Assembly (NCBI GenBank): GCA_903867855.1
Contig: CAIPTA010000181.1
Coordinates: 12,038 to 76,037, forward strand
DNA: 64,000 nt
Origin: Oligoflexia bacterium
Lineage (GTDB): Bacteria > Bdellovibrionota > UBA1018 > CAIPTA01
Reading direction: 5' to 3'
Below the pieces are notes generated by a model. It worked only from the letters and a program-made list of their open reading frames with translations, made no database searches and was not told the DNA's origin. Positions 2 to 60,066 of the stretch are shown one piece after another. Made by a program: the position numbers and the translations under genes. Every line of letters begins with the position of its first letter. Within the stretch, counting starts at the first letter, position 1.

Positions 2-568
2 TTCACCCGCGTGAAAGAGGAATTCGAGCGGCTTCACTTTGCGGAAAATTTGGAAATGCGTGCACTGGGTGGTGAAGGTGGCGTGCTCCAAGAAAAAAAA
101 TCCTTACCTAGCTTCGTGTGCGAGGAAAATGGGAACTTTTTTTGGCGCTGGTTTAGTGATGATCGCGTGGCAGCTTTTGGAAAAAATTTGCCGGCGCTAT
201 TATCGTTCGAGGATACGGAATCCGAGCGAATCGAATTGGGTGAAAGTAAATGGGGCGCGGAATTTGGGCCAGAAGTGAATGTGCTCGATGCGGGATTATT
301 CGATCGTCTACCTGGAAACAAGGGGTGCTATCCCGGCCAAGAAGTAGTGGAAAGATCTTTGAGTGTTGGGCACCCAGCGCGTGCAATGATCCAGGTAAAG
401 GGCGATTGTGAACTCGGCGCTGCACTTTCGGTGGATGGGAAGGATGTAGGCAAGATCACCAGTGTTTCGCCCCGTGGAGTTTATGCCCTAGCAATAGTAC
501 AATGGAAGTATCGCGAAGAAATGAGTTTTGATCATCAGGGAAGGAAGATCGTTCGATGCCACAAGTGA
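2..568 (+). CDS. YgfZ-type folate-binding tRNA-modification protein (GcvT-like fold), 5'-partial at window edge
   Basis: ORF 11..568 is open back to position 2 with no stop. It contains the YgfZ signature K-G-C-Y-x-G-Q-E (KGCYPGQE) with about 80 aa after it, so the N-terminal part lies upstream of the window. Confidence 0.6.
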   Translation, partial: FTRVKEEFERLHFAENLEMRALGGEGGVLQEKKSLPSFVCEENGNFFWRWFSDDRVAAFGKNLPALLSFEDTESERIELGESKWGAEFGPEVNVLDAGLFDRLPGNKGCYPGQEVVERSLSVGHPARAMIQVKGDCELGAALSVDGKDVGKITSVSPRGVYALAIVQWKYREEMSFDHQGRKIVRCHK

Positions 569-855
569 AAGTGAACCACGAGATTGAAGGAAAAAAGAAG
601 GATGTCTACAAGGCAGTAAAGACATACCTAAATGGCCGCGACACTTTAAAAAAATTAGGCGCTGATATCGATTGGGATGATGCAGGCCATTCCGGGGCGA
701 TCGAAGCGAGCAATTTCAAGGGAGAGATTGTAGTGGTGGAAAAATCAGGATCTTCCACCGTTACGATTACGATTGATCTTCCGCTCTTGCTCACGCCATT
801 CAAATCGAAGGTGGAAGAGGAATTAAAAAAACATTTGGGGCGAGTAAAGGCCTGA
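556..855 (+). CDS. small conserved protein, possibly PHA-granule-region (PF09650-like) family
   Basis: 99-aa ORF with ATG at 556. The pattern KKLGADIDWDD...G.IVVVEKSG..V.ITIDLPLLL recalls the polyhydroxyalkanoate-system small-protein family. This is recalled from memory, not searched. Confidence 0.35.
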   Translation: MPQVKVNHEIEGKKKDVYKAVKTYLNGRDTLKKLGADIDWDDAGHSGAIEASNFKGEIVVVEKSGSSTVTITIDLPLLLTPFKSKVEEELKKHLGRVKA

Positions 856-861
856 ATTGGA

Positions 862-1575
862 TTAGGGGCCAGGAACGGGGTTCACGATAAAGTTTACGCC
901 GTAGTTTCCTGGGTTGAAGGCCACTTGATGCTGCTTATCATTCGCGCTCGGCGTATAGAGCATATAGCCCATGATGTGCACTGTGGGGGAAATGCATTTG
1001 CCGGTGGTGGTGGGACAAATTGGTACCCACCAGAGCACTAGGCGAAAAGGGCAAAAGCTACTCGTTGTTGTATTTCCTACTTCGTTTGTGCCGCCGCCAG
1101 CCGCGAAGGGCGTTCCCGACCAGGTATTGCACTGAGCGCCAGTGAGAGTGAATCCCTTGGTAGTGGTGGTGCTTTGGTAGTAAACCGCGCCTGCAGTATT
1201 ATACACATCAAAGGCACCCGTCACCGAGGAAGAGTAATAATTTACGGAGCTATTCGAGGCTACTGAAGGCCCGTTATTCGCAGGATTGGGCGCTTGAGCC
1301 GCGCAATCGGTATAGTTGATTAGGCAAGCGAAGGTAGTGCTATTATTGGCGCCCCATAGCGTTTTCTTCCAGCCTGTTGGGTTTTGTAGAATCGACACCA
1401 CATCTCTACGAATCTGATTGGCTTGAAAGCTAATGCTGGAATTAGAATTTGTTTTGTTTAGGTTATCGATCAACTTGAACGAGGTAAGAATCACCACGGA
1501 GCTTAAGCCAACGGCGATCAGGGATTCCACTAGGGTAAAGCCTAAGCTATTTTTTTTCTTCACGGCTAACCTCAA
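862..1575 (-). CDS. type IV pilin-like protein (paralogue A) with C-terminal Cys motif
   Basis: N-terminus MRLAVKKKNSLG|FTLVESLIAVGL is a class-III prepilin leader with Gly-1/Phe+1/Glu+5 and a hydrophobic helix. C-terminus carries CPFRLVLWWVPICPTTTGKC...GY.LY.P...V.FNPGNYGVN, shared with 2902..3564 and 3670..4587. Confidence 0.75.
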   Translation of the reverse strand: MRLAVKKKNSLGFTLVESLIAVGLSSVVILTSFKLIDNLNKTNSNSSISFQANQIRRDVVSILQNPTGWKKTLWGANNSTTFACLINYTDCAAQAPNPANNGPSVASNSSVNYYSSSVTGAFDVYNTAGAVYYQSTTTTKGFTLTGAQCNTWSGTPFAAGGGTNEVGNTTTSSFCPFRLVLWWVPICPTTTGKCISPTVHIMGYMLYTPSANDKQHQVAFNPGNYGVNFIVNPVPGP

Positions 1576-1576
1576 A

Positions 1577-2905
1577 TCAAAGTATTGGGAATTCCGCTCT
1601 CGGTTCCCGAATCACAAAAAAGGTGAGTAAACAAAAAAGTATGGGCCAAAGCCAAAAGGCCTTGAGTATATATTTGTTTTCTACTCTCAGATAAAGTTCG
1701 CCAAGGCCCCAAATAAAGGCAAAGAGGGGTAAATAGGCCACTCGATCCGCCACGAGGCTTAGCTTCATGAAGGGCACATAGAAGAGGCCGCTGATGGAAA
1801 GGTAGGTAGCAAAGGTAACGCTTAATAACCAATAGCGCTTTGCGAGCCCCCAGATAAAGAGGCCGAGTGAGGCTACGGAAAGTAAGAGAAATAGCCAATT
1901 GAGTCCGGCTAACGTTTGCTTTGTGCGCACGGGGATTTCCGTGAAGCTTAACGATCGCAAGAGATAGTAGCTAAAGGTGCGACCCTCCACTTCCAGTTTT
2001 TCTTTCATGGCTTCAGGGCTCTTGGCGAACTGATCCTGAAGATATCTCTCTTCATGTTTGATGGGGGCTGGGGGAGCTTCGGCTTTCACCGCTATTGGAG
2101 TAGTAAGGATTTTTTTACTTTTACGAATCTTGGCCGTCTTCTTGATGGGCGCTTCTTTCGTTGGGGCCGCCACAAGTTCAGCGGGTTTTGGGGGATTCGT
2201 TAAAAAGTAGCTCGCACTATGCTCCGCTTCCGTGGGGTAATCATAGATTCCATGGGAAACGAGGAAGGCAGAATAGACGCTGAATAGGAGTGCAGGCGAG
2301 GAGTGAAGTAAACTTTTTTTCCAACCCAAAATTTTCGCATTCTTAAAAATTTCCATTGGCGCCAAGAAAAAAGCATAGCTTTTAGTGATCATCATGGCCA
2401 CAAGCAGAGCATTGCTGCGAAGGGGGGAGGCGGGCTTTTCTTCTAAAAAATCGCGCAGCCAAAAAGCGAAGAAAAGCGTGGAAAGCAGGCAGCCGATTTG
2501 GCTAATCCAAGTTACGGCCTCCACGGTGATGGGGCTTAGCCAAAAAAGGCTCGCAGAGAAGAGGGCGGCGGCAAAGGATTTTTTTCGTAAAAAAAGAAAT
2601 AAACAAAATCCATTTGCCCAGTGAAGCAGAATGAGTGCGCTGCGATAGAGAGCGAAATTTAAATGGAAGCCTTGGTATAGCAGCCAGTAAACGCTATGAG
2701 TGAGCGGCCAAGCCTTGGTATTCATTTGGCCGCGATACCAGTATTGCAGTGGGTTCTGGCTACTTTTTATGAAGCTATTGCCGAAGATTAGCGAGTTGTC
2801 ATCTACAAAGGCGCCATAGTGCAGGCTTGGAAAATACAATAGGAACAGAAGCGCGAGAGCGATTCCGGGCACAAAGTATTTTTGTTTAACCAGGGCTTCC
2901 ATCAT
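1577..2905 (-). CDS. polytopic inner-membrane protein, GT-C/PMT-like putative glycosyltransferase
   Basis: 442 aa with many hydrophobic helices and an acidic DD motif in the first loop (AFVDDNSLIF). A Lys/Pro/Ala-rich linker is followed by about 4 more TM helices. The gene abuts pilin paralogue A (1575/1577) and overlaps paralogue B by 4 nt, so it is probably co-transcribed with both. Confidence 0.35.
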   Translation of the reverse strand: MMEALVKQKYFVPGIALALLFLLYFPSLHYGAFVDDNSLIFGNSFIKSSQNPLQYWYRGQMNTKAWPLTHSVYWLLYQGFHLNFALYRSALILLHWANGFCLFLFLRKKSFAAALFSASLFWLSPITVEAVTWISQIGCLLSTLFFAFWLRDFLEEKPASPLRSNALLVAMMITKSYAFFLAPMEIFKNAKILGWKKSLLHSSPALLFSVYSAFLVSHGIYDYPTEAEHSASYFLTNPPKPAELVAAPTKEAPIKKTAKIRKSKKILTTPIAVKAEAPPAPIKHEERYLQDQFAKSPEAMKEKLEVEGRTFSYYLLRSLSFTEIPVRTKQTLAGLNWLFLLLSVASLGLFIWGLAKRYWLLSVTFATYLSISGLFYVPFMKLSLVADRVAYLPLFAFIWGLGELYLRVENKYILKAFWLWPILFCLLTFFVIREPRAEFPIL

Positions 2906-3564
2906 GGGTTTGGTGTGAGCACCAAATTCACTCCGTAGTTATTTGGATTAAAGGGCACTTTCTGGGCGGTATGGGAGGTGGGGGGATTATAAAGAGTATA
3001 GCCGAATACGTGCACCAGTGGATTTACGCAGCTCCCCACTGTGGTGGGGCAAATGGGCACCCACCAGAGCACCAATCGAAAGGGGCATTGCATATTCGGA
3101 GTAACAGTGGAAAAGCCTGTGGCGCCAGCGGTCGAAACCCCATTGGCCCAGTTAGTGCCGCATTGCTGGCCGCTGATATTAAAACCGCGAGCACCATCGG
3201 TACTGATGGGATAATAATTCACTCCAGAAGTATCATACACATCGAAAACGCCAGCCGGAGAGGCACTGGAAAATGTTCCCGATGCGGGGCCGTTCGTTTT
3301 ATAGGCGCTACAATCGGTGCCATTTTTCACGCAGGCAAGCGCGGCATTTCCTTTGATGGTATGTCGCCATGCGGTGAGGTTGGAAAGCAGGATGGAGATT
3401 TGCTTGCGAAAGGCATCAGCCTGAGCGGAGTTCGCGGCAGCAGTGGAGGATTTGTTCATGGTGGTATTGAGCGACATCATGCCGAGTGCTGCAATAGACG
3501 AAAGAGAAACAGCCACCATGAATTCAATGAGGGTAAACCCCAATTTATTGGAAATTAATTTCAT
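2902..3564 (-). CDS. type IV pilin-like protein (paralogue B)
   Basis: MKLISNKLG|FTLIEFMVAVSLSS is a canonical prepilin N-terminus with G|FTLIE. C-terminus carries CPFRLVLWWVPICPTTVGSC...GYTLYNP...VPFNPNNYGVN. Confidence 0.75.
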   Translation of the reverse strand: MKLISNKLGFTLIEFMVAVSLSSIAALGMMSLNTTMNKSSTAAANSAQADAFRKQISILLSNLTAWRHTIKGNAALACVKNGTDCSAYKTNGPASGTFSSASPAGVFDVYDTSGVNYYPISTDGARGFNISGQQCGTNWANGVSTAGATGFSTVTPNMQCPFRLVLWWVPICPTTVGSCVNPLVHVFGYTLYNPPTSHTAQKVPFNPNNYGVNLVLTPNP

Positions 3565-3669
3565 TTCTCCCCACTTTGCCCCAGAGTATAATTATAAACT
3601 AAGTTAAAGGGAATAACCAAGAGCGTGTCCTCGGGGAGACAGTCTGGCTGGAAACCGTGTAAAGTGGCG

Positions 3670-4587
3670 ATGGAGTTTGCCGTGAACAGAAAATACAGAA
3701 AAAATGAATTTGGCTTCGCGCTGCCTATCGTATTGGTGATGATCGCCTTGATCGCCGTGGTTACGGTGTATATGATCAGTCGCTCCACGGCGAGTTCGAA
3801 ACAATCAATTTATACGAATGGAACATTTCAAGGATCGAATATTATTACCCAGGTAACGAACCTAATTCAGGATAGTACCGCTTGGGATCATACCTTATAT
3901 GCCAACGCAGCGATGAGTTGCCTGAAGTTTAGTCCGGGAGTGGATTGCTATGCCGCCTCGACTGCGAACGGCAGCACCTATGTGCAGAATGTTACCTATC
4001 CCACCACAATGACTGGCTCTTTCGTGCTGTACGATCGCTCCGGTAAAATTTTTTATGATTCAACGGCCGCCACGAATGGATTCGACTATACGGGGCAGCC
4101 TTGCCCGTATACCACGTCAAATAGTTATAGCAATTCGTCGAATACAAAAACCTACGGTGATTCCAGCGGACAGTGCCCCTTTCGATTAGTGCTATGGTGG
4201 CAACCTCATTGCACACCAGCCTCTTCTCCCTGCAACTTAAATAATGCCCACCTCGATTATTATACGATTTATGGCTACTTGCTCTTTTCGCCAGTGGGAA
4301 ATAATACGTATAAAGTTCCATTTCGTCCGGAGAACTATAAAATCAGCATTAAAAAATCCACTACGGCAGCGAATGCTAACTATTGTTGTGCGATTGAGTG
4401 TAAGCGCACAACAGCCGATGCGGGCACGGCCTATGTAACCAAAACCATCGTGCAATCAGCAAATTGTTATCCGGGATCCTCGGAAGTGCCTTCCTCGATT
4501 TGTGGAGATGTATTTGCCGCGGATCCAGATGAGTGGGCCTATGATGGGAACGTAGTGACTAATTCTGGCACTTGTGCGGGCGGGTAA
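3670..4587 (+). CDS. pilin-like protein paralogue C (atypical, lacks Glu+5)
   Basis: Reading from the internal ATG at 3670 gives MEFAVNRKYRKNEFG|FALPIVLVMIALIAV: a short basic leader, Gly-Phe, then a hydrophobic helix with Ile at +5. A GTG at 3625 is an alternative start. Shares CPFRLVLWWQPHCTPASSPC...IYGYLLFSP...YKVPFRPENY with paralogues A and B. Confidence 0.55.
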   Translation: MEFAVNRKYRKNEFGFALPIVLVMIALIAVVTVYMISRSTASSKQSIYTNGTFQGSNIITQVTNLIQDSTAWDHTLYANAAMSCLKFSPGVDCYAASTANGSTYVQNVTYPTTMTGSFVLYDRSGKIFYDSTAATNGFDYTGQPCPYTTSNSYSNSSNTKTYGDSSGQCPFRLVLWWQPHCTPASSPCNLNNAHLDYYTIYGYLLFSPVGNNTYKVPFRPENYKISIKKSTTAANANYCCAIECKRTTADAGTAYVTKTIVQSANCYPGSSEVPSSICGDVFAADPDEWAYDGNVVTNSGTCAGG

Positions 4588-4676
4588 AATGACTGGAAAA
4601 CTTGGAATTAGTGCGCGATTATTAACGTCATCATTGATGGCGATGGTTTGCTTTTTAGTGAAGATAGGTTGAATCC

Positions 4677-5642
4677 ATGATTAAAAATATCAGAATTTTG
4701 TTTTTGTTTCTTTTTTCGGTTCAAGCAGGTGCAACGAGCTATGTGGGAATTGGAACGGCGTCTCCGGCGTCATTACTCACGCTTTACACAACGACAAATA
4801 TTCAGGGGCTAGAGATTGATGGAACATCTACCGCAACTAATACGGTGAAAAGCCTTTTTCTTGCGAACGTTACTGCCGGATCTTATAATTCCATCACCCA
4901 AACCGGGGATCAAGGAATAATCTACATGGGGACGACGATAGGTACTCCCAAGGGTTTTTTCATCGCGCCTTGGGCTAGTGCCACCACAGGTCTTCGGCTC
5001 GATACTAATGGCAACGTCGGGATCGGCACGACCTCTACGTACGGAGCTCTAACTGTAGCTAATGGTACAGATCATACGCTTAATGTGCGTGGGGATCCCG
5101 TCTCATTCGGTCTGCCTGCTGGTCTTCTTGGGCCGATTCTTCAAGGCGTAAATAGCGCTCAAACTGTCCAAGAGCCGATCACCTTGGAGGGATCAACAAT
5201 TAACTTGATGGGTGGAAGTGTGGGTATAGGTACCAGTAGCCCCTCTTATGCTTTAGATGTAACAGGCACCATCAGAGCTACAAATCTAATTCTAACTTCT
5301 GATCGCAGAGCAAAGAAAAATATAAGTAGTTTAGATGAAACAGAATCGTTGGAAAAATTGAGCCGATTGAATCCAGTTTCCTTTGAATGGAAAAACTCTG
5401 GCGAGGCTGATCTTGGTATTATCGCGCAGGAGCTTGCGGAGGTTTATCCTGAACTAGTTTTGAAGGATCAACAGGGCGCGCTTTCAATTCGTTCCACTTC
5501 TCTCATTGCTCCGCTCATTGCCTCAGTGAAAAAATTAAAGAGCGACAATGAACTATTGCGAGAAGAAAACGGAAAACAGAAATCGCGCCTCGATGAGTTA
5601 GAGAAAAAATTTAACGCTCTAGCAGCAAAAATAGAAAAGTAA
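4677..5642 (+). CDS. secreted tail-fibre-like (mosaic adhesive trimer-like) protein with C-terminal peptidase S74 intramolecular-chaperone domain
   Basis: Signal peptide MIKNIRILFLFLFSVQAGA. Repeated VGIGT..P..L.V fibre motifs. C-terminal block SDRRAKKNISSLDE...LSRLNPVSFEWK...DLGIIAQELAEVYPELV...SLIAPLIASVKKLKSDNELLREEN matches the auto-cleaving chaperone of phage tail fibres and endosialidases. Confidence 0.8.
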   Translation: MIKNIRILFLFLFSVQAGATSYVGIGTASPASLLTLYTTTNIQGLEIDGTSTATNTVKSLFLANVTAGSYNSITQTGDQGIIYMGTTIGTPKGFFIAPWASATTGLRLDTNGNVGIGTTSTYGALTVANGTDHTLNVRGDPVSFGLPAGLLGPILQGVNSAQTVQEPITLEGSTINLMGGSVGIGTSSPSYALDVTGTIRATNLILTSDRRAKKNISSLDETESLEKLSRLNPVSFEWKNSGEADLGIIAQELAEVYPELVLKDQQGALSIRSTSLIAPLIASVKKLKSDNELLREENGKQKSRLDELEKKFNALAAKIEK

Positions 5643-5646
5643 AACT

Positions 5647-6486
5647 ATGCTTCTTTCCCTGCTTATCACATTACTATCTAGCACTTTTGCTCATGCCACT
5701 GCTTGTGCGACCAGTGGTTTGATGACAGTCGCCTCTGGCGTTAATACTGTTTGCCAAAACAGTGTTTTAGGAACTCCTCAGGGATCATCTCTCGGCACTT
5801 GTGCAGGAACAACAGCTGGAACCACCACTTATTCGGCGGGTACCTACAAAGTATGTGATGGCTCTAATTGGTACGACATGAAGGGGAGTTCCATTGGCTC
5901 TTGTGTGGGAACTACAGCGGGCACATTGTCATACGTCTCAAATGCCTTTCAGTTTTGTGATGGTACTAATTGGTATAGTTTAACCTCTGGTACTGTGACG
6001 ATTAACTTAACCTCTACTTCCTGTGATGGAGTTTATTGTAAATATGTGAGCAGTGGAGATGCTGATGCAAATGGATATTGCATCAGTAATGGGTATGCCT
6101 CCGCTGTTTCTTCTACCTCAGGCGGGAACGGTTGCAACGGCTGTTATTATGTCGATTGGGTGTCCAATGCTTGGAACACTCCATATCACAATTGCAACAG
6201 CTGTAATCAAATGGCTACGGTTACTTGCCAAAGTGGAACTCCAAGTATTCCTTGTGGCGAAGCAATTTACTCCACAGGTGTTGTAAGTAACTATATCGAT
6301 GGAACTTGGGGGTCGATTAATGCGGGCTCTTGTCCGTACCCGAGTATGTATCAATTCCAAAACCTTGGCAGTCAGAGCACGGATCAAGGAGTGAAGCCTT
6401 TAGTCCGTTGTGGATATTGTGGTCCAGGGTCGGTGAACAACCCCTCAGTGACTTGCCTGAATAACTCAAATTGTGTGGCTCATTAA
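5647..6486 (+). CDS. secreted Cys-rich protein with internal duplication
   Basis: Signal peptide MLLSLLITLLSSTFAHA and more than 25 Cys. The segment C.GTTAGT..Y......CDG.NWY occurs twice in tandem. It starts 5 nt after the fibre gene stop. Confidence 0.6.
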   Translation: MLLSLLITLLSSTFAHATACATSGLMTVASGVNTVCQNSVLGTPQGSSLGTCAGTTAGTTTYSAGTYKVCDGSNWYDMKGSSIGSCVGTTAGTLSYVSNAFQFCDGTNWYSLTSGTVTINLTSTSCDGVYCKYVSSGDADANGYCISNGYASAVSSTSGGNGCNGCYYVDWVSNAWNTPYHNCNSCNQMATVTCQSGTPSIPCGEAIYSTGVVSNYIDGTWGSINAGSCPYPSMYQFQNLGSQSTDQGVKPLVRCGYCGPGSVNNPSVTCLNNSNCVAH

Positions 6487-6679
6487 GGGAGCGCTTACTG
6501 TGAAAGCGCGGCTACTTCAGAAACGCCCAGTGTGCCTTCGATCACTACATTCTCATTTGCCTTGGCCTGCGAGGCGAGGGCGATAAATCGGGCGCCGATA
6601 ACTGCTACTCTGATCATGTTTACTCCTGGGTAAAGTGCCGATGCCTGGGTATAGAGCATCGCGTTGCTCGTGGCTATGC

Positions 6680-7519
6680 TTACAATATTTTATGGATAGA
6701 TTTTACTGGCGCTAGCTTCCGCTTCAGCAGCGCAGGCACCGGGCAGAGAAGGATACTCATCCAAACCGCCACGCTAAAATAGAGCGACATCCAAAGAAAT
6801 TCATAGCCCCAATCTTTCACATCGTGAGTGACCATCCAGCGCGTGTTGAGATCTTTTATGCCATCCATAAAGCCTAGAAACTGCTTGCCGCTCGCAATAT
6901 CCGCCTGATGACGACTCATGTACATGGGCACATCTACAGTGGCCATATACATCACATACATCGCGCACCCAATGGCACCGAGGATGATCGCTCTACGAAA
7001 CCAGCCTTGAAAGTGTGAGCGAAGATCAAGAAGAGCCAACACGATCAAGAAATAGCTCACTCCCCACAATGATTCCTCCACGCAGTTGCCGATATAATTT
7101 GTGGTCACCACGGCATACCAAGAGCAAATTTCTGCCACACAGATAAGCGGCACAATCATGCGCGCAATTTTGCTCGTGAAATTTGCCTTACTCTCTTGAG
7201 CGAGAAAGGAAAGGAGCTCCGCCCATTCAGCCACGAAACAAAGTTCTGCGATTGTGGCTACAGAGCGGCCCACGAAAACGGAGGAGAGCCAAGTATCAAA
7301 GAGGCAAATGCGCTGCACATCTGCCCTCGGCAGAAGGGAGCGAAAGGCGCAGCCGAAAACATAGGCGCCAGAAAGGAGGAGGAGTTTTTTTGTGGTGGGA
7401 TCCTTTGGGAGGCTTAGGCGGGCCTTTGTCCAAGCGCTACAATTTAGTGCGCTCACACCTACTAGAAAGAGCCACCAAATGGCCACAGGGTTTGAGAGGG
7501 TAATCCAGGAGAGATTCAT
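6680..7519 (-). CDS. hypothetical polytopic membrane protein
   Basis: 279-aa ORF with multiple hydrophobic segments and no recognisable motif. It overlaps the downstream MNT gene start by 4 nt. Confidence 0.45.
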   Translation of the reverse strand: MNLSWITLSNPVAIWWLFLVGVSALNCSAWTKARLSLPKDPTTKKLLLLSGAYVFGCAFRSLLPRADVQRICLFDTWLSSVFVGRSVATIAELCFVAEWAELLSFLAQESKANFTSKIARMIVPLICVAEICSWYAVVTTNYIGNCVEESLWGVSYFLIVLALLDLRSHFQGWFRRAIILGAIGCAMYVMYMATVDVPMYMSRHQADIASGKQFLGFMDGIKDLNTRWMVTHDVKDWGYEFLWMSLYFSVAVWMSILLCPVPALLKRKLAPVKSIHKIL

Positions 7520-7788
7520 TTGGTGAGCCTATAGAAGCATTTACTAAAGAGCCGGATATGTTCGAGCAGTTCTTTGCTTTCAATTTGGGTATAGATCGAG
7601 AGGTCTATTTTATAGGGTAGGAGTAGATCATCTAGCGCGGATTCTATGGCCAAGAGTTCTGAATTTTTTCTAAAGTTAACTTTGGCTCTAGAACCGTAAA
7701 CCAGAACTTCTTCTACATTCGAAAATGCGCTAAAAACATCTTGAATGCTAGCAATGGTTTTTTCGCTGAGGCCAAACTCACTTTTCAT
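7516..7788 (-). CDS. MNT-type minimal nucleotidyltransferase (HI0073-like), catalytic motif degenerate
   Basis: ..LVYGSRAKVNFRKNSELLAIE.. aligns with the HI0073-type G-S-x(9-11)-D-x-D-L motif, but DLD reads EL: one codon shorter and only one acidic residue retained. Overlaps the HEPN partner by 4 nt. Confidence 0.55.
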   Translation of the reverse strand: MKSEFGLSEKTIASIQDVFSAFSNVEEVLVYGSRAKVNFRKNSELLAIESALDDLLLPYKIDLSIYTQIESKELLEHIRLFSKCFYRLTK

Positions 7789-8015
7789 GTATGTAAAAGG
7801 CTACTTAATTTTTGGGAAAGTTTTTCAAACTGGTCGAGATAGGATCCTACTACCTTTTGGATAATATCCTCTGCCGTTGGGCGATTATAGGTATGGGATG
7901 TTTGATTTCTGCTCTTGATCATTTCCATCCAGCAATCTCCGTCGCTCATTTGCTGAAGAGCTACTTTGAAGTTTTGGAAACGCTGCTGCCAGCGAATTTC
8001 TTGTCTCATGATCAC
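7785..8015 (-). CDS. HEPN / nucleotidyltransferase-substrate-binding (HI0074-like) protein, internally shortened
   Basis: N-terminus IRWQQRFQNFKVAL and C-terminal R-x4-H-x-Y HEPN motif (RNQTSHTY) are both present. At 76 aa the protein is far shorter than the family norm (about 120-140 aa), consistent with an in-frame internal deletion. Confidence 0.5.
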   Translation of the reverse strand: MIMRQEIRWQQRFQNFKVALQQMSDGDCWMEMIKSRNQTSHTYNRPTAEDIIQKVVGSYLDQFEKLSQKLSSLLHT

Positions 8016-13970: not shown

Positions 13971-16475
13971 GTGAGATTTTTCGCCTTTTATTTTGCTGCC
14001 TTTTTTCTAAGTCATTCCGTGGCGTTCGCCGTTGATCTAGGGCCATTATTTAAAAATTGCCAAGAGGCATGGTCTAAACTTAGCACTTCGCAATCTAAGG
14101 ATAGGCAAGCCTTGCTCGATAGGGTGAATCCGTCTACCGACACATTGGATCAACTGGATCGCTTAACTGCTGTAGAAGATATTTTAAAATGGGGCAAAAC
14201 CACGGATGACGAATTGGATTATCTGCGCCTCATTCGTCTCCGCGATTATGTAGATGCACCAAATTATATGGCCGGTGTGGAAATCTATGGCCAGGAAACC
14301 TATCTCGCTTGGCGTGATGCAGATGAATTTTTAAAGAGCATTCCGATTGGAAAATTTGAACCCACTATCGATGTGCTTTCAAAGAATCATCGCTTGGCCA
14401 CATCTGCCTTGTCGAAAACTCTGAAGCGTCTTGATAGTATCATCCCCGATGGTCTGCTGGCGGATAAGGGCGGAGTGATCAAGCGTAGAAGCTCGATCAA
14501 TATTGTGCCGATCTTGGACCCCTTGAAACATCCCTTCACAGATGAGCAGTATGCGGCCATCAAAGCAAACCAATGGCTTCAGGGATTTGTAGAGCTCCCC
14601 ATTCATCAGCCTGGTAAACATTTTGGATATATCTACTATTCGAAACCAGAGGATACACAGCCTGAGCTCGAGGCCTTAATTAAATGGTATGATCTCAATA
14701 AAAATAAAATGGATCCGGTGGAGCTCGCCGCAAAGTTTTCCTATCGTTATACTTCGATTCATCCTTTCATTGATGGGAATGGACGTTCTTCTCGGCTCAT
14801 CATGGATCGTATCCTCGCTGAATATGGATTACCTCCACCCTTATTAAAAGATTCGTGGGAAGATATTGTGCTCGGCGAAGATAAATATGTGCAAGAAGTG
14901 CGCGATGGGATTGATCGCTACTTAACCCTAGCAGAACAAAAAGCGCCAACTTATTATAATAATAAAAGTGGCAACTTAGTTACAACAGGGGTGTTAAAAC
15001 TGTCGGCCGCTAGCGATAGAGTGCTCGCACCACTCAGCGGAGAAACATTTAAGGTAGAAGGCAAAGAACTTTATTTCAGCACTACAGATGGATTTTTCTA
15101 TGATCATTTTGGTGTGCCGTATTTGGTGCACGAAAATCGATTTTATCCAGTGGCCGATCGTAGCTATCGTTTATATGAATTGAATGCTACGGCAAAAATA
15201 GATGGATATACTGCAGGGCTCAGCAAAGGCCATGCCCTACAGCTAAGAGAGAATTTGCGTTTTATCAAAAGCGTTGCGGATAAAAGCGCAGATTTAACGA
15301 CGTTCACGGTGGAGCCGTATTCTTCGATCGCAGCCGCGAATAAAATTGGAGATTTCCAGTTTTTCCCTTGGCAGAAAGATCTTTTTCAAAGCGCGGCCAC
15401 AATTACGGAAACAGATCCAACTAAAATTCTTTCCGTGTTTCGCTTTCAAAAAACCACTTTCGCTGCTGGCGCAAATCCAGAAACGATACTGGCTCAGTAT
15501 GAGTATGTAGATTACCTATATTGGCAAATGCAGCAAGCGGCCAAAAAATATTTTCCTGATCTTGAGGCTACCGTGATGGAGAGTCGTCAAAAGTTGCACC
15601 AAGCGGGAAGAGATTTGCTAGAGCCTTATCGTCAGGCCCGTAATGCACTTCCGTCTGAAGGTGCCCAGCGAGTAAGCAATAACTATCGAGTGAAGCTTTT
15701 CGATGCTTACTTGGAAAATTCTAAGCTCAGTTATAAGAGCTTCGATCGAGCCATGGACGCTATGCCAGACGATTCCATGGTGGTGATGCGTAGTGATATG
15801 CCGATCGTTTCCAAAATTGGCTTCACTTCTATTAGCGATTTTAGGAAGTTGTTCACCAGCCTGCCAAATTCCAAGAAGTTGGGGATTTTCCTCGAAAAAT
15901 TGCAAGCCTTCATGACGGGAGAAGGCAAGCGCCCCCTGCAGCAAGTTATTGCTGGAATTCACGAAAAAATTGAAAATAATGAAGGCCCTTTTAAGTTCTT
16001 GCCGCCATTTTTAGAGAAGATGTATTTTGATATTGAAAAAACCTATAACGATGGCGGTTACAACGCATTTCTAACTGCGCTAGCTAAAGTTCTAGAGAGT
16101 CCCTATGTTCATCGAGGTCTGGGCGACGAGTGGGAGCGTGCCTTCGTAGTGCAGCAATTACATGCTGGAGATGTGGGGAATAAATCTCTTAAATCTTTCA
16201 CAACGAACACAAATTTAATGAGTGGGGTGCCTTTTGTGGATATTCCTGCAAAGGGACAAATCTCCTTTGTGCGAATTCCAAAAACCAAGATCAAGCCTCA
16301 ACTGGGCTCTGATATGTTTACGAATGAATACGAAATATTGGCAACCGATATAGTTGGGCCGCAGAGAATTATTCAAAAGTTTTCTGGAGCGGAATTGGCG
16401 CAGCCAATTACTCCGGTAGAAGCTCTGCCGGATACAGATCCAAATAAACAATTTATGCAGCAGTATTTTAATTGA
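13971..16475 (+). CDS. large secreted Fic (Fido) domain protein
   Basis: Signal peptide ..FFAFYFAAFFLSHSVAFA. The canonical Fic active-site motif H-P-F-x-D-G-N-G-R-x-x-R (HPFIDGNGRSSR) is intact and embedded in an otherwise unrecognised 834-aa protein. No (S/T)xxxE(G/N) inhibitory motif was noticed by eye. Confidence 0.75.
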   Translation: MRFFAFYFAAFFLSHSVAFAVDLGPLFKNCQEAWSKLSTSQSKDRQALLDRVNPSTDTLDQLDRLTAVEDILKWGKTTDDELDYLRLIRLRDYVDAPNYMAGVEIYGQETYLAWRDADEFLKSIPIGKFEPTIDVLSKNHRLATSALSKTLKRLDSIIPDGLLADKGGVIKRRSSINIVPILDPLKHPFTDEQYAAIKANQWLQGFVELPIHQPGKHFGYIYYSKPEDTQPELEALIKWYDLNKNKMDPVELAAKFSYRYTSIHPFIDGNGRSSRLIMDRILAEYGLPPPLLKDSWEDIVLGEDKYVQEVRDGIDRYLTLAEQKAPTYYNNKSGNLVTTGVLKLSAASDRVLAPLSGETFKVEGKELYFSTTDGFFYDHFGVPYLVHENRFYPVADRSYRLYELNATAKIDGYTAGLSKGHALQLRENLRFIKSVADKSADLTTFTVEPYSSIAAANKIGDFQFFPWQKDLFQSAATITETDPTKILSVFRFQKTTFAAGANPETILAQYEYVDYLYWQMQQAAKKYFPDLEATVMESRQKLHQAGRDLLEPYRQARNALPSEGAQRVSNNYRVKLFDAYLENSKLSYKSFDRAMDAMPDDSMVVMRSDMPIVSKIGFTSISDFRKLFTSLPNSKKLGIFLEKLQAFMTGEGKRPLQQVIAGIHEKIENNEGPFKFLPPFLEKMYFDIEKTYNDGGYNAFLTALAKVLESPYVHRGLGDEWERAFVVQQLHAGDVGNKSLKSFTTNTNLMSGVPFVDIPAKGQISFVRIPKTKIKPQLGSDMFTNEYEILATDIVGPQRIIQKFSGAELAQPITPVEALPDTDPNKQFMQQYFN

Positions 16476-18156
16476 TTGCTGGAAGCAGTGTGCTTAAGGA
16501 ACCCAGATCGTTTCTAAGTTGAATACCGATTCCGGCACCGAGGCCAGCGCAGGAATTAGTAACACTTTTTTTAATCGCAAATGTATTTTTGCAGTATTGA
16601 TTTTTTACGTCCGGAGCGGAAGGTTCCGCATCGGAGCAGAAAATAGAATTAAATATGGATAGACCAGAAGTCACATCTCCCAAAGGGTTCACTATATCTA
16701 TTACTTGGCCGCCAGCCAGGGCAAGGCCACCCTCATAGATCCCAATTCCGCCAATCGCGGCCACTAACTGATGAGGCAATTCCGTATCACTTGTGGAAAT
16801 CACGCCTTTTCCAAAAAATAGACCCGAAACTAAGTCCGCACCAAAGTCGATAGGGGCATTAATGGTGGAATCGATGATCGTGCCCACATAGCCAATATCA
16901 GAAGCAAAATAAGCGGCACCACGAAAAATCGGAGTAAAGAAATTTTCCTGTGGAGCTGGTGGTGGCGGTGAAATTTTTTTCTGGGGCAAGGGGTGAATTG
17001 TGTCTACCACTATTTTCGCTACGGCCTTAGCCTGGCCTGGCTGGAATTTTTCTTCGAGCATTTGAAAACTGCCTTGGTATCGCATTAGTAGTGCTTCGAT
17101 AAAGAGTACGTCATCCTCTCCCAGCGCACGATAAGATTTCGCGGCTCTTTCCATGGCTCCGGGTATATCTGAATAATGGTCTGATTCGCGCAATTCGAGA
17201 ATAGTATTCCAGACTAATTGATCTGCTTTTTCTTGCCCGAGTTGGTCTCTTATTTTCCAAAGGAATGATGGCAAAAAACTTTCCCATTTCGTTTCTGTTG
17301 GCGTGGAATTTGTGACTTCAACTATTTTACTGAAATCCAGTTCGTAGCTTTCGCCCGCGAATTCCTTAAGGCCAAGAAAAGAATTTTTTTCATTTATCGA
17401 GCTAGCCAGGTAGCTGCCCAGATTCAAGGAGATTGGTTTTTTTTCTGGATCGGGGAGTAGTCCGGGAGAATCTACGGCTGCATAGAATGCTTCCAAGTAA
17501 ATTAGGTCGGGCAGCTTGGCTGCGTCCATCCCAAAGTTAAAGTGGGCGAGGGTTTTGGCTGGTTCGAGTATTCCTAGAGTTACCCAGTCGTGTTCATAAA
17601 CTGCCTGGCCTTCATTCTCTGCGGTATCATACCAGTTTATATCTTCTAATCCTTGCTTGCGGCTATGAAACCAAATTTCTTCATTCCAGGAGCCATTTCT
17701 AGGAATATAGCGAGCGCTATTAAATTCCGCTTTTTCGGAAAAATGTTTTTGGGCATCGAATGCTTTATTCAAATCAAGCCGAACCAAAATTTTTCGATCT
17801 AGTGCTGAGTCTGGGCGTATTTGCGTGGCTAGTTTCAAAAAATATTCATGGGCCTTGGTGAGGTGGTAGAGCACATTGTTCGCATCAAAGGAGCGTTTTT
17901 TTATTGCGTCTTCACTGTCGGCACTTACTAATTTGAAGAAAGAATTTTCTGCCGCGTTGGAGCTATTTATTTGGAGTGCGCTTTTACAGCTTTCTTCTTC
18001 CAGCGAAGTTATTTTATAGCCTTGGTCGCTATCGATTTTTTCACTTGTAATAATAGCGCATTTATCTACGCTAGCCTCGATGGCGTTTTGGAGCTTCGCT
18101 ACCGCAGGCTGCGTGCAGAATAAGCTAAGGATTAGATAGAGCCATGGGCGATGCAT
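16468..18156 (-). CDS. secreted hypothetical protein with Gly-rich C-terminal region
   Basis: Signal peptide MHRPWLYLILSLFCTQPAVA and 562 aa. Convergent with the Fic gene, with which it overlaps by 8 nt. No known motif. Confidence 0.45.
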   Translation of the reverse strand: MHRPWLYLILSLFCTQPAVAKLQNAIEASVDKCAIITSEKIDSDQGYKITSLEEESCKSALQINSSNAAENSFFKLVSADSEDAIKKRSFDANNVLYHLTKAHEYFLKLATQIRPDSALDRKILVRLDLNKAFDAQKHFSEKAEFNSARYIPRNGSWNEEIWFHSRKQGLEDINWYDTAENEGQAVYEHDWVTLGILEPAKTLAHFNFGMDAAKLPDLIYLEAFYAAVDSPGLLPDPEKKPISLNLGSYLASSINEKNSFLGLKEFAGESYELDFSKIVEVTNSTPTETKWESFLPSFLWKIRDQLGQEKADQLVWNTILELRESDHYSDIPGAMERAAKSYRALGEDDVLFIEALLMRYQGSFQMLEEKFQPGQAKAVAKIVVDTIHPLPQKKISPPPPAPQENFFTPIFRGAAYFASDIGYVGTIIDSTINAPIDFGADLVSGLFFGKGVISTSDTELPHQLVAAIGGIGIYEGGLALAGGQVIDIVNPLGDVTSGLSIFNSIFCSDAEPSAPDVKNQYCKNTFAIKKSVTNSCAGLGAGIGIQLRNDLGSLSTLLPAIN

Positions 18157-24752: not shown

Positions 24753-25298
24753 TTGTGGTATCAAGAATTTATGAAACAGGGTGATTTTTTTCCTATCCAA
24801 CAAAAAGCCTATGGTGGTGAGCTACTGAAAACTCGTCGTGGTCGCATGCATGGGCGCACTCTTTCTACGAAACATTCAATGCACCTTGTGCTCCGCTCTA
24901 CTCGGGCTAAAGGGGCGCTTTCTTTTTTAAGACATCGGATCACAATTGATCGTATTTTGACTAAATTTGCGGCAAAAAATGGAGTAAGGATTTTGTCTCT
25001 GGCCAACGTAGGGAATCACCTGCACCTGGAGATACGGCTCTCTACGCGGCATACTTATCGCGCCTTCATTCGAGCGATCACGGCGGCTATCGCCATGGCG
25101 GTGCAAGGGAAGAATCGCTGGAATAAGATTCAAGAGAAATTTTGGGACTATCGCCCCTTTACCCGCATCGTAGTGGGCTATCGAGCGCTGCTCTCGTTAA
25201 AAGACTATATCGAGATCAATCAGCTAGAGGGACTTGGCGTAGCACGGTCGAAGTCTCGTCTAGCTTTGGGCTGGCGAGTAGTGAGACCGCCAGGGTGA
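24753..25298 (+). mobile_element. RAYT / IS200-like HUH (Y1) tyrosine-transposase gene, apparently solitary
   Basis: HUH motif NHLHLEIRL and a C-terminal KFWDYRPF...DYIEINQL block matching the RFWE...DYIYINP catalytic-Tyr helix of REP-associated tyrosine transposases. A 530-bp non-coding region lies upstream. Confidence 0.55.
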
Positions 25299-33448: not shown

Positions 33449-33563
33449 AGAGCCTCCAAAGCGAATCCCCATCTAACTGATCGGACTTTTCTAGAAAAGT
33501 CTTTACCGTAGGAAAATACTTTGGATATTGTTTAAGGATTTTACAGTGTCTAAAAGTTCGACA

Positions 33564-59866: not shown

Positions 59867-60066
59867 GTGTATTTGTCCCTCGCTAAAATTTGTATCCCGC
59901 CAATAATTTAGGTGCAACAAAGGAGAGGCAATTTTTTGAGAAAACTATGAAATAAATACGCGATATGACGTTTTGCGTTATATCGTTTTATGTAAACATA
60001 TATTAGTTATAATTGACGGTTCATCCTTTTCTGGCAAGGATCTTTGCAGAAAGAGGGAATAAATTC

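Follow-up and report, generated by a model that had tools for sequence, protein, structure and literature searches.

The window, a stretch of DNA of 64,000 nucleotides, carries a six-ORF module at 862-6486 in which genes for three paralogous pilin-like proteins lie beside those for a GT-C-like membrane protein, a fibre protein with an S74 chaperone domain and a Cys-rich secreted protein. On our interpretation, the module encodes a complex of minor pilins that shows a trimeric fibre adhesin at the tip of a type IV filament, and its GT-C enzyme modifies the pilins; we give this interpretation a probability of about 0.5. The evidence comes from the encoded proteins, from the recurrence of the module in other genomes, and from distant relatives in which pilin and fibre are joined in one protein.

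Gene content and surroundings of the locus

The six ORFs form two divergent operons, and all of them were present at the coordinates given in the initial annotation, which confirmed its list of pilin, membrane, fibre and Cys-rich genes. The minus strand carries pilin B (862-1575), the membrane protein (1577-2905, 442 aa) and pilin A (2902-3564). The start of the membrane-protein gene overlaps the stop codon of pilin A at 2902-2905, as the reported 4-nt overlap required. The 1-nt gap reported between pilin B and the membrane-protein gene applies only if pilin B is taken as its longest ORF, which begins with TTG at 1575; public gene calls begin four codons later (233 aa), and the likely start is GTG at 1563. 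The plus strand carries pilin C (ORF 3625-4587; 305 aa if translated from the likely ATG at 3670), the fibre gene (4677-5642, 321 aa) and the gene for the Cys-rich protein (5647-6486, 279 aa with 20 Cys), separated by gaps of 89 and 4 nt. Between both operons lies an intergenic region of 105 bp (3565-3669), which contains a perfect TATAAT on the plus strand (3587-3592), a consensus match only. No full sigma-70-like match was found in 3565-3669, the number of such matches over 500-7800 was below the shuffle expectation, and the promoter and terminator scan together remained below chance expectation.

The module is flanked by housekeeping genes (YgfZ-like, Dus, ClpP, and ClpX). The best matches of ClpX and ClpP, at 69% and 82% identity, were to Bacteriovoracaceae and Bdellovibrio MAGs, which place the organism only loosely in the Bdellovibrionota. 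Around ClpP and ClpX in the genomes of the nearest species, synteny was limited to these two genes and the module was absent. Beyond 10 kb, 41 ORFs have at least 150 aa; we scanned 30 of them with Pfam, together with the ORFs around the locus. Among the ORFs scanned, the PilB, PilC, PilQ, and prepilin-peptidase families had no match, in agreement with the initial annotation, and neither pilus machinery nor T2SS genes were found. A major pilin gene was not found in the locus, nor was an additional pilin of the trio's family found in the window.

The encoded proteins

Pilins A, B, and C are 30-45% identical to one another and have six invariant Cys and a CPFRLVLWW motif in common; judged by these features, they are true paralogues within one pilin-like family. 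Two of them, A and B, have canonical G/FTL[IV]E prepilin N-termini (the slash marks the cleavage site). The leader of pilin A, the A-type member, reads MKLISNKLG/FTLIE, and that of pilin B, which falls in the B-type clade and contains the six conserved Cys, ends in NSLG/FTLVE; Glu5 is present in both. Pilin C, the C-type member, starts with G/FALPIV, retaining the G/F cleavage site and a hydrophobic helix, and is missing Glu5, as is every C-type orthologue. Pilin A matched PF07963 (N_methyl) with 26.5 bits against a cut-off of 21.2 and TIGR02532 with 23 bits against a cut-off of 16.3. The PF07963 score of pilin B (20.9 bits) was slightly below the Pfam cut-off, and pilin C matched neither the N_methyl nor the TIGR02532 model. 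We do not assign the pilins to the PilV, ComG, GspH/I, or Verru_Chthon cassette families, for which the weak NCBIfam matches covered the N-terminal helix only and were far below the cut-offs. The globular domain had no sequence match in the PDB.

In the AF2 model of pilin A, a long helix at the N-terminus (12-61) precedes a beta-sheet; this is the expected pilin fold, and the best structural matches of the model were the T2SS minor pseudopilins GspI and GspK. An S/T/G-rich loop of low confidence lies between Cys135 and Cys160. The extra C-terminal domain envisaged for all three pilins was found in pilin C and not in pilins A and B. Pilin C combines the 6-Cys globular domain of the trio with a C-terminal module of ~80 aa containing six further Cys, which is kept in the relatives P0018, P0025, P0026, and P0048. 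The C-type proteins from different loci group as one clade, and we propose pilin C as a capping subunit.

The membrane protein itself had no Pfam match, and its relatives P0008 and P0012 reached the PMT_2 gathering score. Its alignment with TPR-containing PMT_2 (TMTC-like) glycosyltransferases (hhalign 99.5%, E = 1.9e-22, 349 columns) and an invariant DD motif bore out the earlier description of it as GT-C-like. The motif, D35-D36, directly follows TM1 and is invariant in 14/14 aligned sequences, as are other GT-C positions; by the positive-inside rule, it would lie in the first periplasmic loop. The top Foldseek matches of the AF2 model (pTM 0.78) were ArnT (E = 0.0098, prob 1.0), STT3, PglB, Pmt4, and PimE, with TM-scores of just 0.3-0.4 and none at E<=0.001. 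Residues 220-276 form a disordered Pro/Lys/Ala-rich insert. The protein stops after the transmembrane domain and has no C-terminal TPR, like P0002, P0003, and the orthologue in locus L088. A PDB profile search with the full membrane-protein alignment was dominated by TPR proteins and gave no useful information. We classify it by homology as a TPR-less relative of PMT_2/TMTC-like GT-C enzymes, and not as TMTC-type.

The fibre protein consists of a signal peptide, three GIGT-type repeats (24, 115, 183), an S74 chaperone, and a C-terminal coiled coil. Peptidase_S74 (PF13884) matched residues 208-262 (E = 2.4e-16), with the SDxxxK Ser-Lys motif present as SDRRAK at residues 208-213, and the PDB sequence matches were the MYRF chaperone domain and a phage tail fibre. 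These features identify an S74 intramolecular-chaperone fibre, for which autocleavage is predicted. The Cys-rich protein comprises a signal peptide, two 'C.GTTAGT..Y......CDG.NWY' repeats, and a Cys-rich C-terminal half; it matched no known family, and a PDB sequence search returned no match. The fibre and the Cys-rich protein each have a Sec signal peptide, and neither has an obvious anchor.

Recurrence of the module and pilin-fibre fusions

Pilins adjoin a GT-C gene in five independent metagenomic lineages with differing gene orders, and an orthologous S74 fibre gene adjoins the pilins in three of these lineages. This supports the earlier view of a dedicated unit rather than a standard pil operon, and the locus is conserved as a unit in the sense that the module recurs. 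The fibre orthologue beside the L090 pilins is 34% identical over its full length, and that beside the L088 pilins is 30% identical. The adjacency of fibre and pilin genes is kept across three gene orders and about 30-45% protein divergence. The Cys-rich motif recurs in one lineage; it was found in a signal-peptide protein of L090 whose gene begins 54 nt past the fibre gene. L001 has neither a fibre gene nor a Cys-rich gene, and in L161 the two are not found after the pilins; the pilin/GT-C core is kept in both. The fibre and Cys-rich genes are accessory to this core. An ABC-2 exporter adjoins the module in L161, and two tyrosine recombinases lie beside the fibre gene in L088. Shufflon-like switching of the L088 fibre gene was considered on account of these recombinases and a Shufflon_N-like stretch in P0036, and was dropped because suitable inverted repeats were not found.

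The family is rare and wholly unannotated in public data. Word-indexed homologue searches with the pilin profiles returned 3-4 proteins only, and the family was visible only by exhaustive HMM search. When GTDB species genomes and JGI metagenome contigs were scanned for motifs from the pilin and membrane-protein alignments, no relatives were found.

The wider pilin family comprises 405 clusters. Pilin-fibre-S74 fusions were found in eight of the 151 representatives (P0027, P0036, P0038, P0049, P0097, P0102, P0119, and P0133), and fibre residues 23-317, covering the mature part and the chaperone, align to the C-terminal half of P0036. In the window, pilin and S74 are encoded by separate genes. 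Because distant relatives fuse pilin and fibre in one protein, the fibre of the window is probably carried on the pilus tip as an adhesin.

Proposed tip complex, alternatives, and known systems

We infer the following order of assembly. The locus would provide an accessory tip module, and the machinery that assembles the type IV filament would be encoded elsewhere. Prepilin peptidase would cut the three pilin-like proteins after the conserved Gly, and the products may form a 1:1:1 priming or tip complex, with pilin C, which lacks Glu5 and carries the extra Cys-rich module, as its cap, in the role that GspK has at the GspI-J-K tip of the T2SS. The fibre would be exported through Sec and trimerise in the periplasm under the control of the S74 chaperone, which would then cleave itself off at Ser208. 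The mature trimer of ~190-residue chains would dock on the pilin trio and be carried out by the filament tip as a receptor-binding adhesin; in related organisms the same outcome would be reached by a single polypeptide in which the pilin module continues directly into the fibre and S74 domain. The GT-C-like enzyme, translationally coupled to the pilin genes, would use a polyprenyl-phosphate sugar to glycosylate the pilins in the periplasm, the sites probably being the S/T-rich, disulfide-bounded pilin loops. The Cys-rich protein may act with the fibre or the tip, as a partner or as cargo.

The similarity of the pilin model to GspI and GspK would also fit a secretion pseudopilus, in which the trio tips a short T2SS-like or T4b-like piston pushing the Sec-exported fibre and Cys-rich protein across the outer membrane, with the fibre anchored elsewhere or released. 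The lack of an obvious anchor on either exported protein and the absence of a major pilin gene from the locus point in the same direction. Such cargo would resemble T2SS substrates, or TcpF and CofJ of type IVb systems. However, the covalent pilin-fibre-S74 fusions place the fibre on a filament subunit rather than among released cargo, and T2SS genes were not found nearby, so that we consider a piston unlikely, if credible. We are slightly more doubtful that the pilins and the GT-C enzyme function alone as a set of glycosylated minor pilins, with the fibre and Cys-rich proteins as independent surface proteins that became neighbours by co-regulation or common island descent and do not physically contact the pilins. 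Such independence would agree with the arrangements in L001 and L161, and the three fibre-bearing loci could owe their adjacency to a single ancestor, but the persistence of this adjacency through rearrangement and divergence, together with the independent linkage of pilin and fibre in the fusions, argues against it.

The target of the membrane protein may be something other than a pilin: the fibre or the Cys-rich protein, or the envelope or lipid A in an ArnT-like manner; the protein could also be a non-catalytic platform for the trio. The missing TPR substrate-recognition domain of its nearest relatives, the best fold match to ArnT, and the exporter adjoining the L161 module favor such roles. 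We consider them improbable, since the gene is linked by start/stop overlap to the pilins and not to the fibre, is present in the fibre-less L001, and encodes invariant catalytic-type DD and other GT-C positions. Matches of the fibre to many PHROG tail-fibre families, its relatives on 64 viral contigs and the recombinases of L088 could indicate that the locus is what remains of a prophage or phage tail, or that a degraded tail-fibre gene and unrelated general-secretion pseudopilins cluster by chance. This origin is largely refuted and was rejected: phage-family matches were confined to the fibre among the module genes and their neighbors, housekeeping genes lie on both sides, the fibre carries a bacterial Sec signal peptide, and the module is kept in several lineages, with its pilin family not found on viral contigs.

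Tip-located minor pilins and adhesins give type IV pili new functions. The passengers known to us at type IV pilus tips are either proteins of the PilY1 type or domains that have been grafted onto a pilin. A pilin-borne tip complex as proposed here suggests a further solution, an S74-matured phage-style trimeric fibre presented by pilins, and evolution appears to have made both fusions and a split system of three pilins and a fibre. More tentatively, type IV filaments of some Bdellovibrionota-like bacteria might carry S74-matured, phage-type trimeric receptor-binding fibres at their tips, either as a pilin fusion or docked to a dedicated glycosylated heterotrimer of paralogous minor pilins. 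The retractable pilus would then be a tail-fibre-bearing harpoon that recognises and reels in target cells, and the same principle could explain the anchoring of MAT-type fibres on predator surfaces. If the proposed tip complex is right, the module would be a concrete candidate for how predatory or epibiotic bacteria mount fibre adhesins on the cell, and would add a likely pilin-modifying glycosyltransferase, a GT-C enzyme that is TMTC-like but TPR-less.

The pilin-S74 architecture (IPR012902-IPR030392) is already catalogued among modular pilins in a 2021 survey, which took S74 as a 'peptidase' function and made no link to a trimeric fibre, a pilin trio, or a GT-C gene (Raynaud et al. 2021, PMC8179133). 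It is matched exactly by P0036, P0049, P0038, P0027, and other relatives, and, if our reading is true, this 'pilin-peptidase S74' architecture would be reinterpreted as a fibre-display device. We know of no catalogued member that has been studied experimentally. The likeness to the S. sanguinis modular pilins PilB and PilC lies in a pilin 'carrier' module with an effector module displayed on it at the tip of the filament. Pilin C is likewise bimodular, whereas the window fibre differs from the modular pilin-S74 proteins in being a separate Sec-secreted protein.

Pilin C also resembles GspK-type capping subunits in the absence of Glu5. Unlike the GspI-GspJ-GspK and FimU/PilVWX-PilY1 tips, the members of the trio are closely related paralogues that have a single 6-Cys globular domain in common, and the proposed passenger of the trio is a homotrimeric phage-type fibre rather than a beta-propeller protein. 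The type IVb pili have the trimeric tip minor pilins CofB and TcpB with the secreted partners CofJ and TcpF (PMC8179133). The threefold pilin tip assembly, the beta-rich trimerising C-terminal domains, and the secreted partner encoded nearby would be similar, but homology was not detected in this comparison; CofB/TcpB form a homotrimer, in contrast to the three different pilins of the split version here, and trimerisation would instead come from the S74 chaperone-assisted fibre.

The window fibre shares with the S74 subgroup of Bdellovibrio MAT fibres a signal peptide, trimeric-fibre-type repeats, a C-terminal S74 domain with SDxxxK, and its occurrence in a Bdellovibrionota-like organism. The MAT proteins of that study are much longer (for example Bd3182, 922 aa; Bd2133, 1,031 aa) and have in common a beta-rich N-terminal domain of ~130 aa; the authors left the surface anchor unidentified and raised the possibility of an interplay between the fibres and type IV pili (Caulton et al. 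2024, PMC10769870). In contrast, the window fibre has 321 aa with GIGT repeats straight after the signal peptide (from residue 24), and its ~188-residue pre-S74 part would offer little room for such a domain. The fibre had no sequence match to the MAT tip fragments, the only MAT parts in the PDB.

TfpW is a GT-C arabinosyltransferase encoded beside pilA in P. aeruginosa group IV strains. The window likewise has the gene of a polytopic GT-C-type enzyme directly beside the pilin genes whose products it would modify. For the wider context of pilin glycosylation, see bioRxiv 10.1101/150227. The window protein is instead related to the PMT_2/TMTC-like branch, and is likened to TfpW by gene position and enzyme type.

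Gene content of the divergent locus

The locus comprises six genes. On the minus strand, the ORF list gave pilin B (window positions 862–1575), a 442-aa membrane protein (1577–2905), and pilin A (2902–3564), while the plus strand carries pilin C (3625–4587), a 321-aa fibre protein (4677–5642), and a 279-aa Cys-rich protein (5647–6486). For pilin C, the ATG at 3670, which is the start used by public gene calls, yields a 305-aa protein. The initial annotation had described the minus-strand genes as tightly packed. The 4-nt overlap between the membrane-gene start and the pilin A stop codon was confirmed, while the 1-nt gap to pilin B holds only for the longest ORF. The GC content is uniform across the locus, and the six-gene feature is real. 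None of the window ORFs scanned against Pfam matched the PilB, PilC, PilQ, or PilD families, in agreement with the earlier statement that no pilB, pilC, pilQ, or prepilin peptidase gene is present.

The three pilins aligned across their full length with 30–45% identity and share an invariant CPFRLVLWW motif. Pilins A and B possess G|FTL[IV]E prepilin N-termini (N_methyl/TIGR02532). Pilin C retains the Gly-Phe site and the hydrophobic helix, lacks Glu5, and bears an additional C-terminal module of ~80 residues with six further Cys. All three contain an S/T/G-rich loop between conserved Cys, which was modelled with low confidence. An exhaustive HMM search with a query limited to the globular domain of the trio retrieved 405 representative clusters at a cut-off of E ≤ 1e-3, of which 58 reached E ≤ 1e-10; no further member was found in the window. 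The N-terminus is of the G[FMLV][ST]L[IV]E type in nearly all members, the domain begins at residue ~45–60, and six Cys are invariant across the family. These features therefore indicate a genuine but divergent pilin family, closest in shape to the minor pilins of tip complexes.

In the fibre protein, a signal peptide is followed by three GIGT fibre repeats and by a Peptidase_S74 domain (E = 2.4e-16; SDRRAK at residues 208–213), and the chain ends in a coiled coil. The Cys-rich protein likewise starts with a signal peptide; it contains 20 Cys, the repeat C.GTTAGT..Y...CDG.NWY occurs in it twice, and it matched nothing in Pfam, NCBIfam, PHROGs, or the PDB sequences.

Among 5.8 billion proteins, the membrane protein has only two full-length homologues, P0002 (41% identity) and P0003 (38%). 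Weaker matches were TPR-repeat proteins, several with PMT_2, two of which passed the Pfam PMT_2 threshold. In a joint alignment, the whole transmembrane domain is similar between the membrane protein and these TPR relatives, and the invariant positions include Asp35-Asp36, directly after the first helix. Profile–profile comparison of the TPR-less and TPR groups gave 99.5% probability (E = 1.9e-22, 349 columns). The AlphaFold2 model (pTM 0.78) best matched ArnT, STT3, PglB, Pmt4, and PimE in the PDB, all of which are GT-C enzymes. The global scores of these matches are weak (E of about 0.01, TM 0.3–0.4). We assign the protein to the PMT_2 (TMTC-like) lineage of GT-C enzymes, as a member that lacks TPRs, with a putative activity, sugar donor, and acceptor. 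The sole disordered stretch in the model, residues 220–276, is a lineage-specific Pro/Lys/Ala-rich loop insert (PPKPAELVAAPTKEAPIKK...) that is missing or far shorter in orthologues.

Conservation of the locus in metagenomic lineages

The gene neighbourhood could be examined in several independent metagenomic lineages, with GC contents from 48% to 59%. In L090, a C-type pilin gene diverges from two pilin genes, an S74 fibre gene (34% identity to the window fibre, full length), and a gene for a signal-peptide protein, which begins with '...YEYCDGAQWHSMRGS...C..ATEGKLTY', the repeat of the window Cys-rich protein. The Cys-rich protein is thus recurrent in at least two lineages. In L088/L089/L091 and a 31-kb sister contig, an S74 fibre gene (30% identity) diverges from a GT-C-like gene followed by two pilin genes and a C-type pilin gene. 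L001 has a C-type pilin gene divergent from two pilin genes and a GT-C-like gene, with no fibre in the 17 kb of contig examined. The order in both L002 and L085–87/L161 is GT-C-like gene, pilin, and C-type pilin; the L002 contig ends there, before reaching the fibre region, and in L085–87/L161 an ABC-2 exporter, and no fibre gene, follows pilin C.

In a neighbour-joining tree without support values, the pilins form three clades (A-, B-, and C-type), to each of which every complete locus contributes one member. The three pilins and the GT-C-like gene are therefore a core that is retained in all lineages open to judgement. The fibre gene is adjacent in three lineages, in three different gene orders. 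The finding that the initial annotation had named as contrary evidence, a locus not kept as a unit in related genomes, was accordingly not made.

Since the GT-C-like gene is always found next to the pilins, shows translational coupling with them in the window, and persists where the fibre is lacking, the pilins are most plausibly the target glycosylated by the putative enzyme.

Two local features of related loci were also recorded. In the L085/L161 lineage (L161:1099–2674), an ABC-2 membrane protein and an ABC ATPase are encoded after the C-type pilin; they resemble a Wzm/Wzt glycan exporter and could be linked to sugar supply for the GT-C enzyme. Between L088:1575–5315 and its 31-kb sister contig (JGI 3300050046), two pilins are identical (P0022, P0025), whereas the fibre genes are different (366 aa versus 320 aa). 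In L088, the fibre has two tyrosine recombinases and an HTH_17 gene as neighbours, and three unknown genes occupy that place in the sister contig; no shufflon-like repeats were found.

A candidate tip module of a type IV filament

Peptidase_S74 and the pilin module occur in one polypeptide in 4 of the 59 wider-family members scanned with Pfam, and others of this set carry H_lectin, Gly_rich_2, or ALK_LTK_GRD modules. A local search detected the full S74 domain in 8 of 151 listed representatives (P0027, P0036, P0038, P0049, P0097, P0102, P0119, and P0133), and GIGT repeats without S74 in about seven more. Residues 1–214 of P0036 align with pilin A (35% identity) and residues 328–617 with the window fibre (27% across 323 columns). 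The S74 fusions come from different source samples, each as one continuous ORF. Rosetta-stone fusions of this kind are independent evidence for a physical cooperation between the pilin module and the S74 fibre.

The model with the most support is that of a tip module for a type IV filament whose assembly machinery would be encoded elsewhere. Because three distinct paralogous pilins are kept as orthologous sets, one of them consistently Glu5-less and bimodular, the trio would fit a 1:1:1 priming or tip complex, like the established GspI-J-K complex or PilVWX holding PilY1. A homotrimeric fibre would require a threefold base, which three pilin–fibre chains might supply in the fused relatives, and the pilin trio in the split version. 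Trimerisation would be imposed by the S74 chaperone, with cleavage at Ser208 to follow; both steps have been shown for phage fibres and for the mosaic adhesive trimer (MAT) fibre Bd3182 (PMC10769870). The GT-C-like enzyme would glycosylate the pilins, and the Cys-rich protein might be a partner or cargo comparable to CofJ or TcpF.

The likeness to GspI-J-K would also suit a secretion pseudopilus with the fibre as its cargo, and the lineages with no fibre beside the core might be expected if the genes were merely neighbours without contact. The fusions, in which both parts form a single chain, favour a physical association over either reading. The window fibre has viral tail-fibre relatives, as is expected for S74 fibres, which could suggest a phage remnant; the fibre gave the only phage-family match within the module and its flanks, the pilin family was not found on viral contigs, and the flanks consist of housekeeping genes and a small nucleotidyltransferase pair. 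A different role for the membrane protein is a further alternative.

Other fusions show further variety. P0040 and other members of alignment A5 carry varied C-terminal modules (ALK/LTK glycine-rich domain, Gly_rich_2, H-type lectin), and the pilin family seems to be a general carrier of adhesin-like modules. An HTH_3/DUF4423 gene and an unannotated ~370-aa gene flank both the fusion gene of P0036 (L092:1643–3554) and that of P0038 (L159:12261–14445), and might serve the fused systems as a conserved pair of regulators or partners.

Known systems and genomic setting

Raynaud et al. 2021 (PMC8179133) defined modular pilins and listed pilin plus S74 (IPR012902-IPR030392) among the most frequent architectures, reading it as a peptidase function. 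The fused form is therefore already catalogued, and has been neither interpreted as a fibre nor studied. The literature searched described no split form with three orthologous pilin types, no TMTC-like GT-C gene lacking TPRs in such a module, no short S74 fibre that is secreted separately, and no Cys-rich partner protein. The feature would belong among pilus-tip adhesin modules. Caulton et al. 2024 did not identify what anchors MAT fibres to the cell surface, and pointed to a possible interplay with type IV pili (PMC10769870). The module provides a concrete hypothesis for that anchor; membership of the window fibre itself in the MAT family is doubtful on size grounds.

The window ClpX and ClpP are at best 69% and 82% identical, respectively, to those of Bacteriovoracaceae and Bdellovibrio MAGs, which points to a divergent Bdellovibrionota-like bacterium. 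In the nearest species genomes, the surroundings of ClpP-ClpX lack the module, and at the motif level it is also missing from 185,579 GTDB species representatives.

A multi-pass membrane protein of 279 aa (6680–7519, minus strand), whose gene runs convergently to that of the Cys-rich protein, had no Pfam, NCBIfam, or PHROG match and no homologue in the related loci, and probably lies outside the module. Between the module and Dus/ClpP, two small overlapping ORFs (7516–8015, minus strand) encode a Polbeta-like nucleotidyltransferase and an NTase_sub_bind protein, and look like an MNT/HEPN-type toxin–antitoxin pair. Elsewhere, the window encodes an IS200-like Y1 transposase (24753–25298), an 834-aa Fic-domain protein (13971–16475), and three large ORFs without a Pfam match (30602–33472, 956 aa; 57434–59920, 828 aa; 16468–18156, 562 aa). 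Beyond the window start, a few kb from the module, the public contig carries a mevalonate-pathway cluster (HMG-CoA reductase, diphosphomevalonate decarboxylase, and GHMP kinase).
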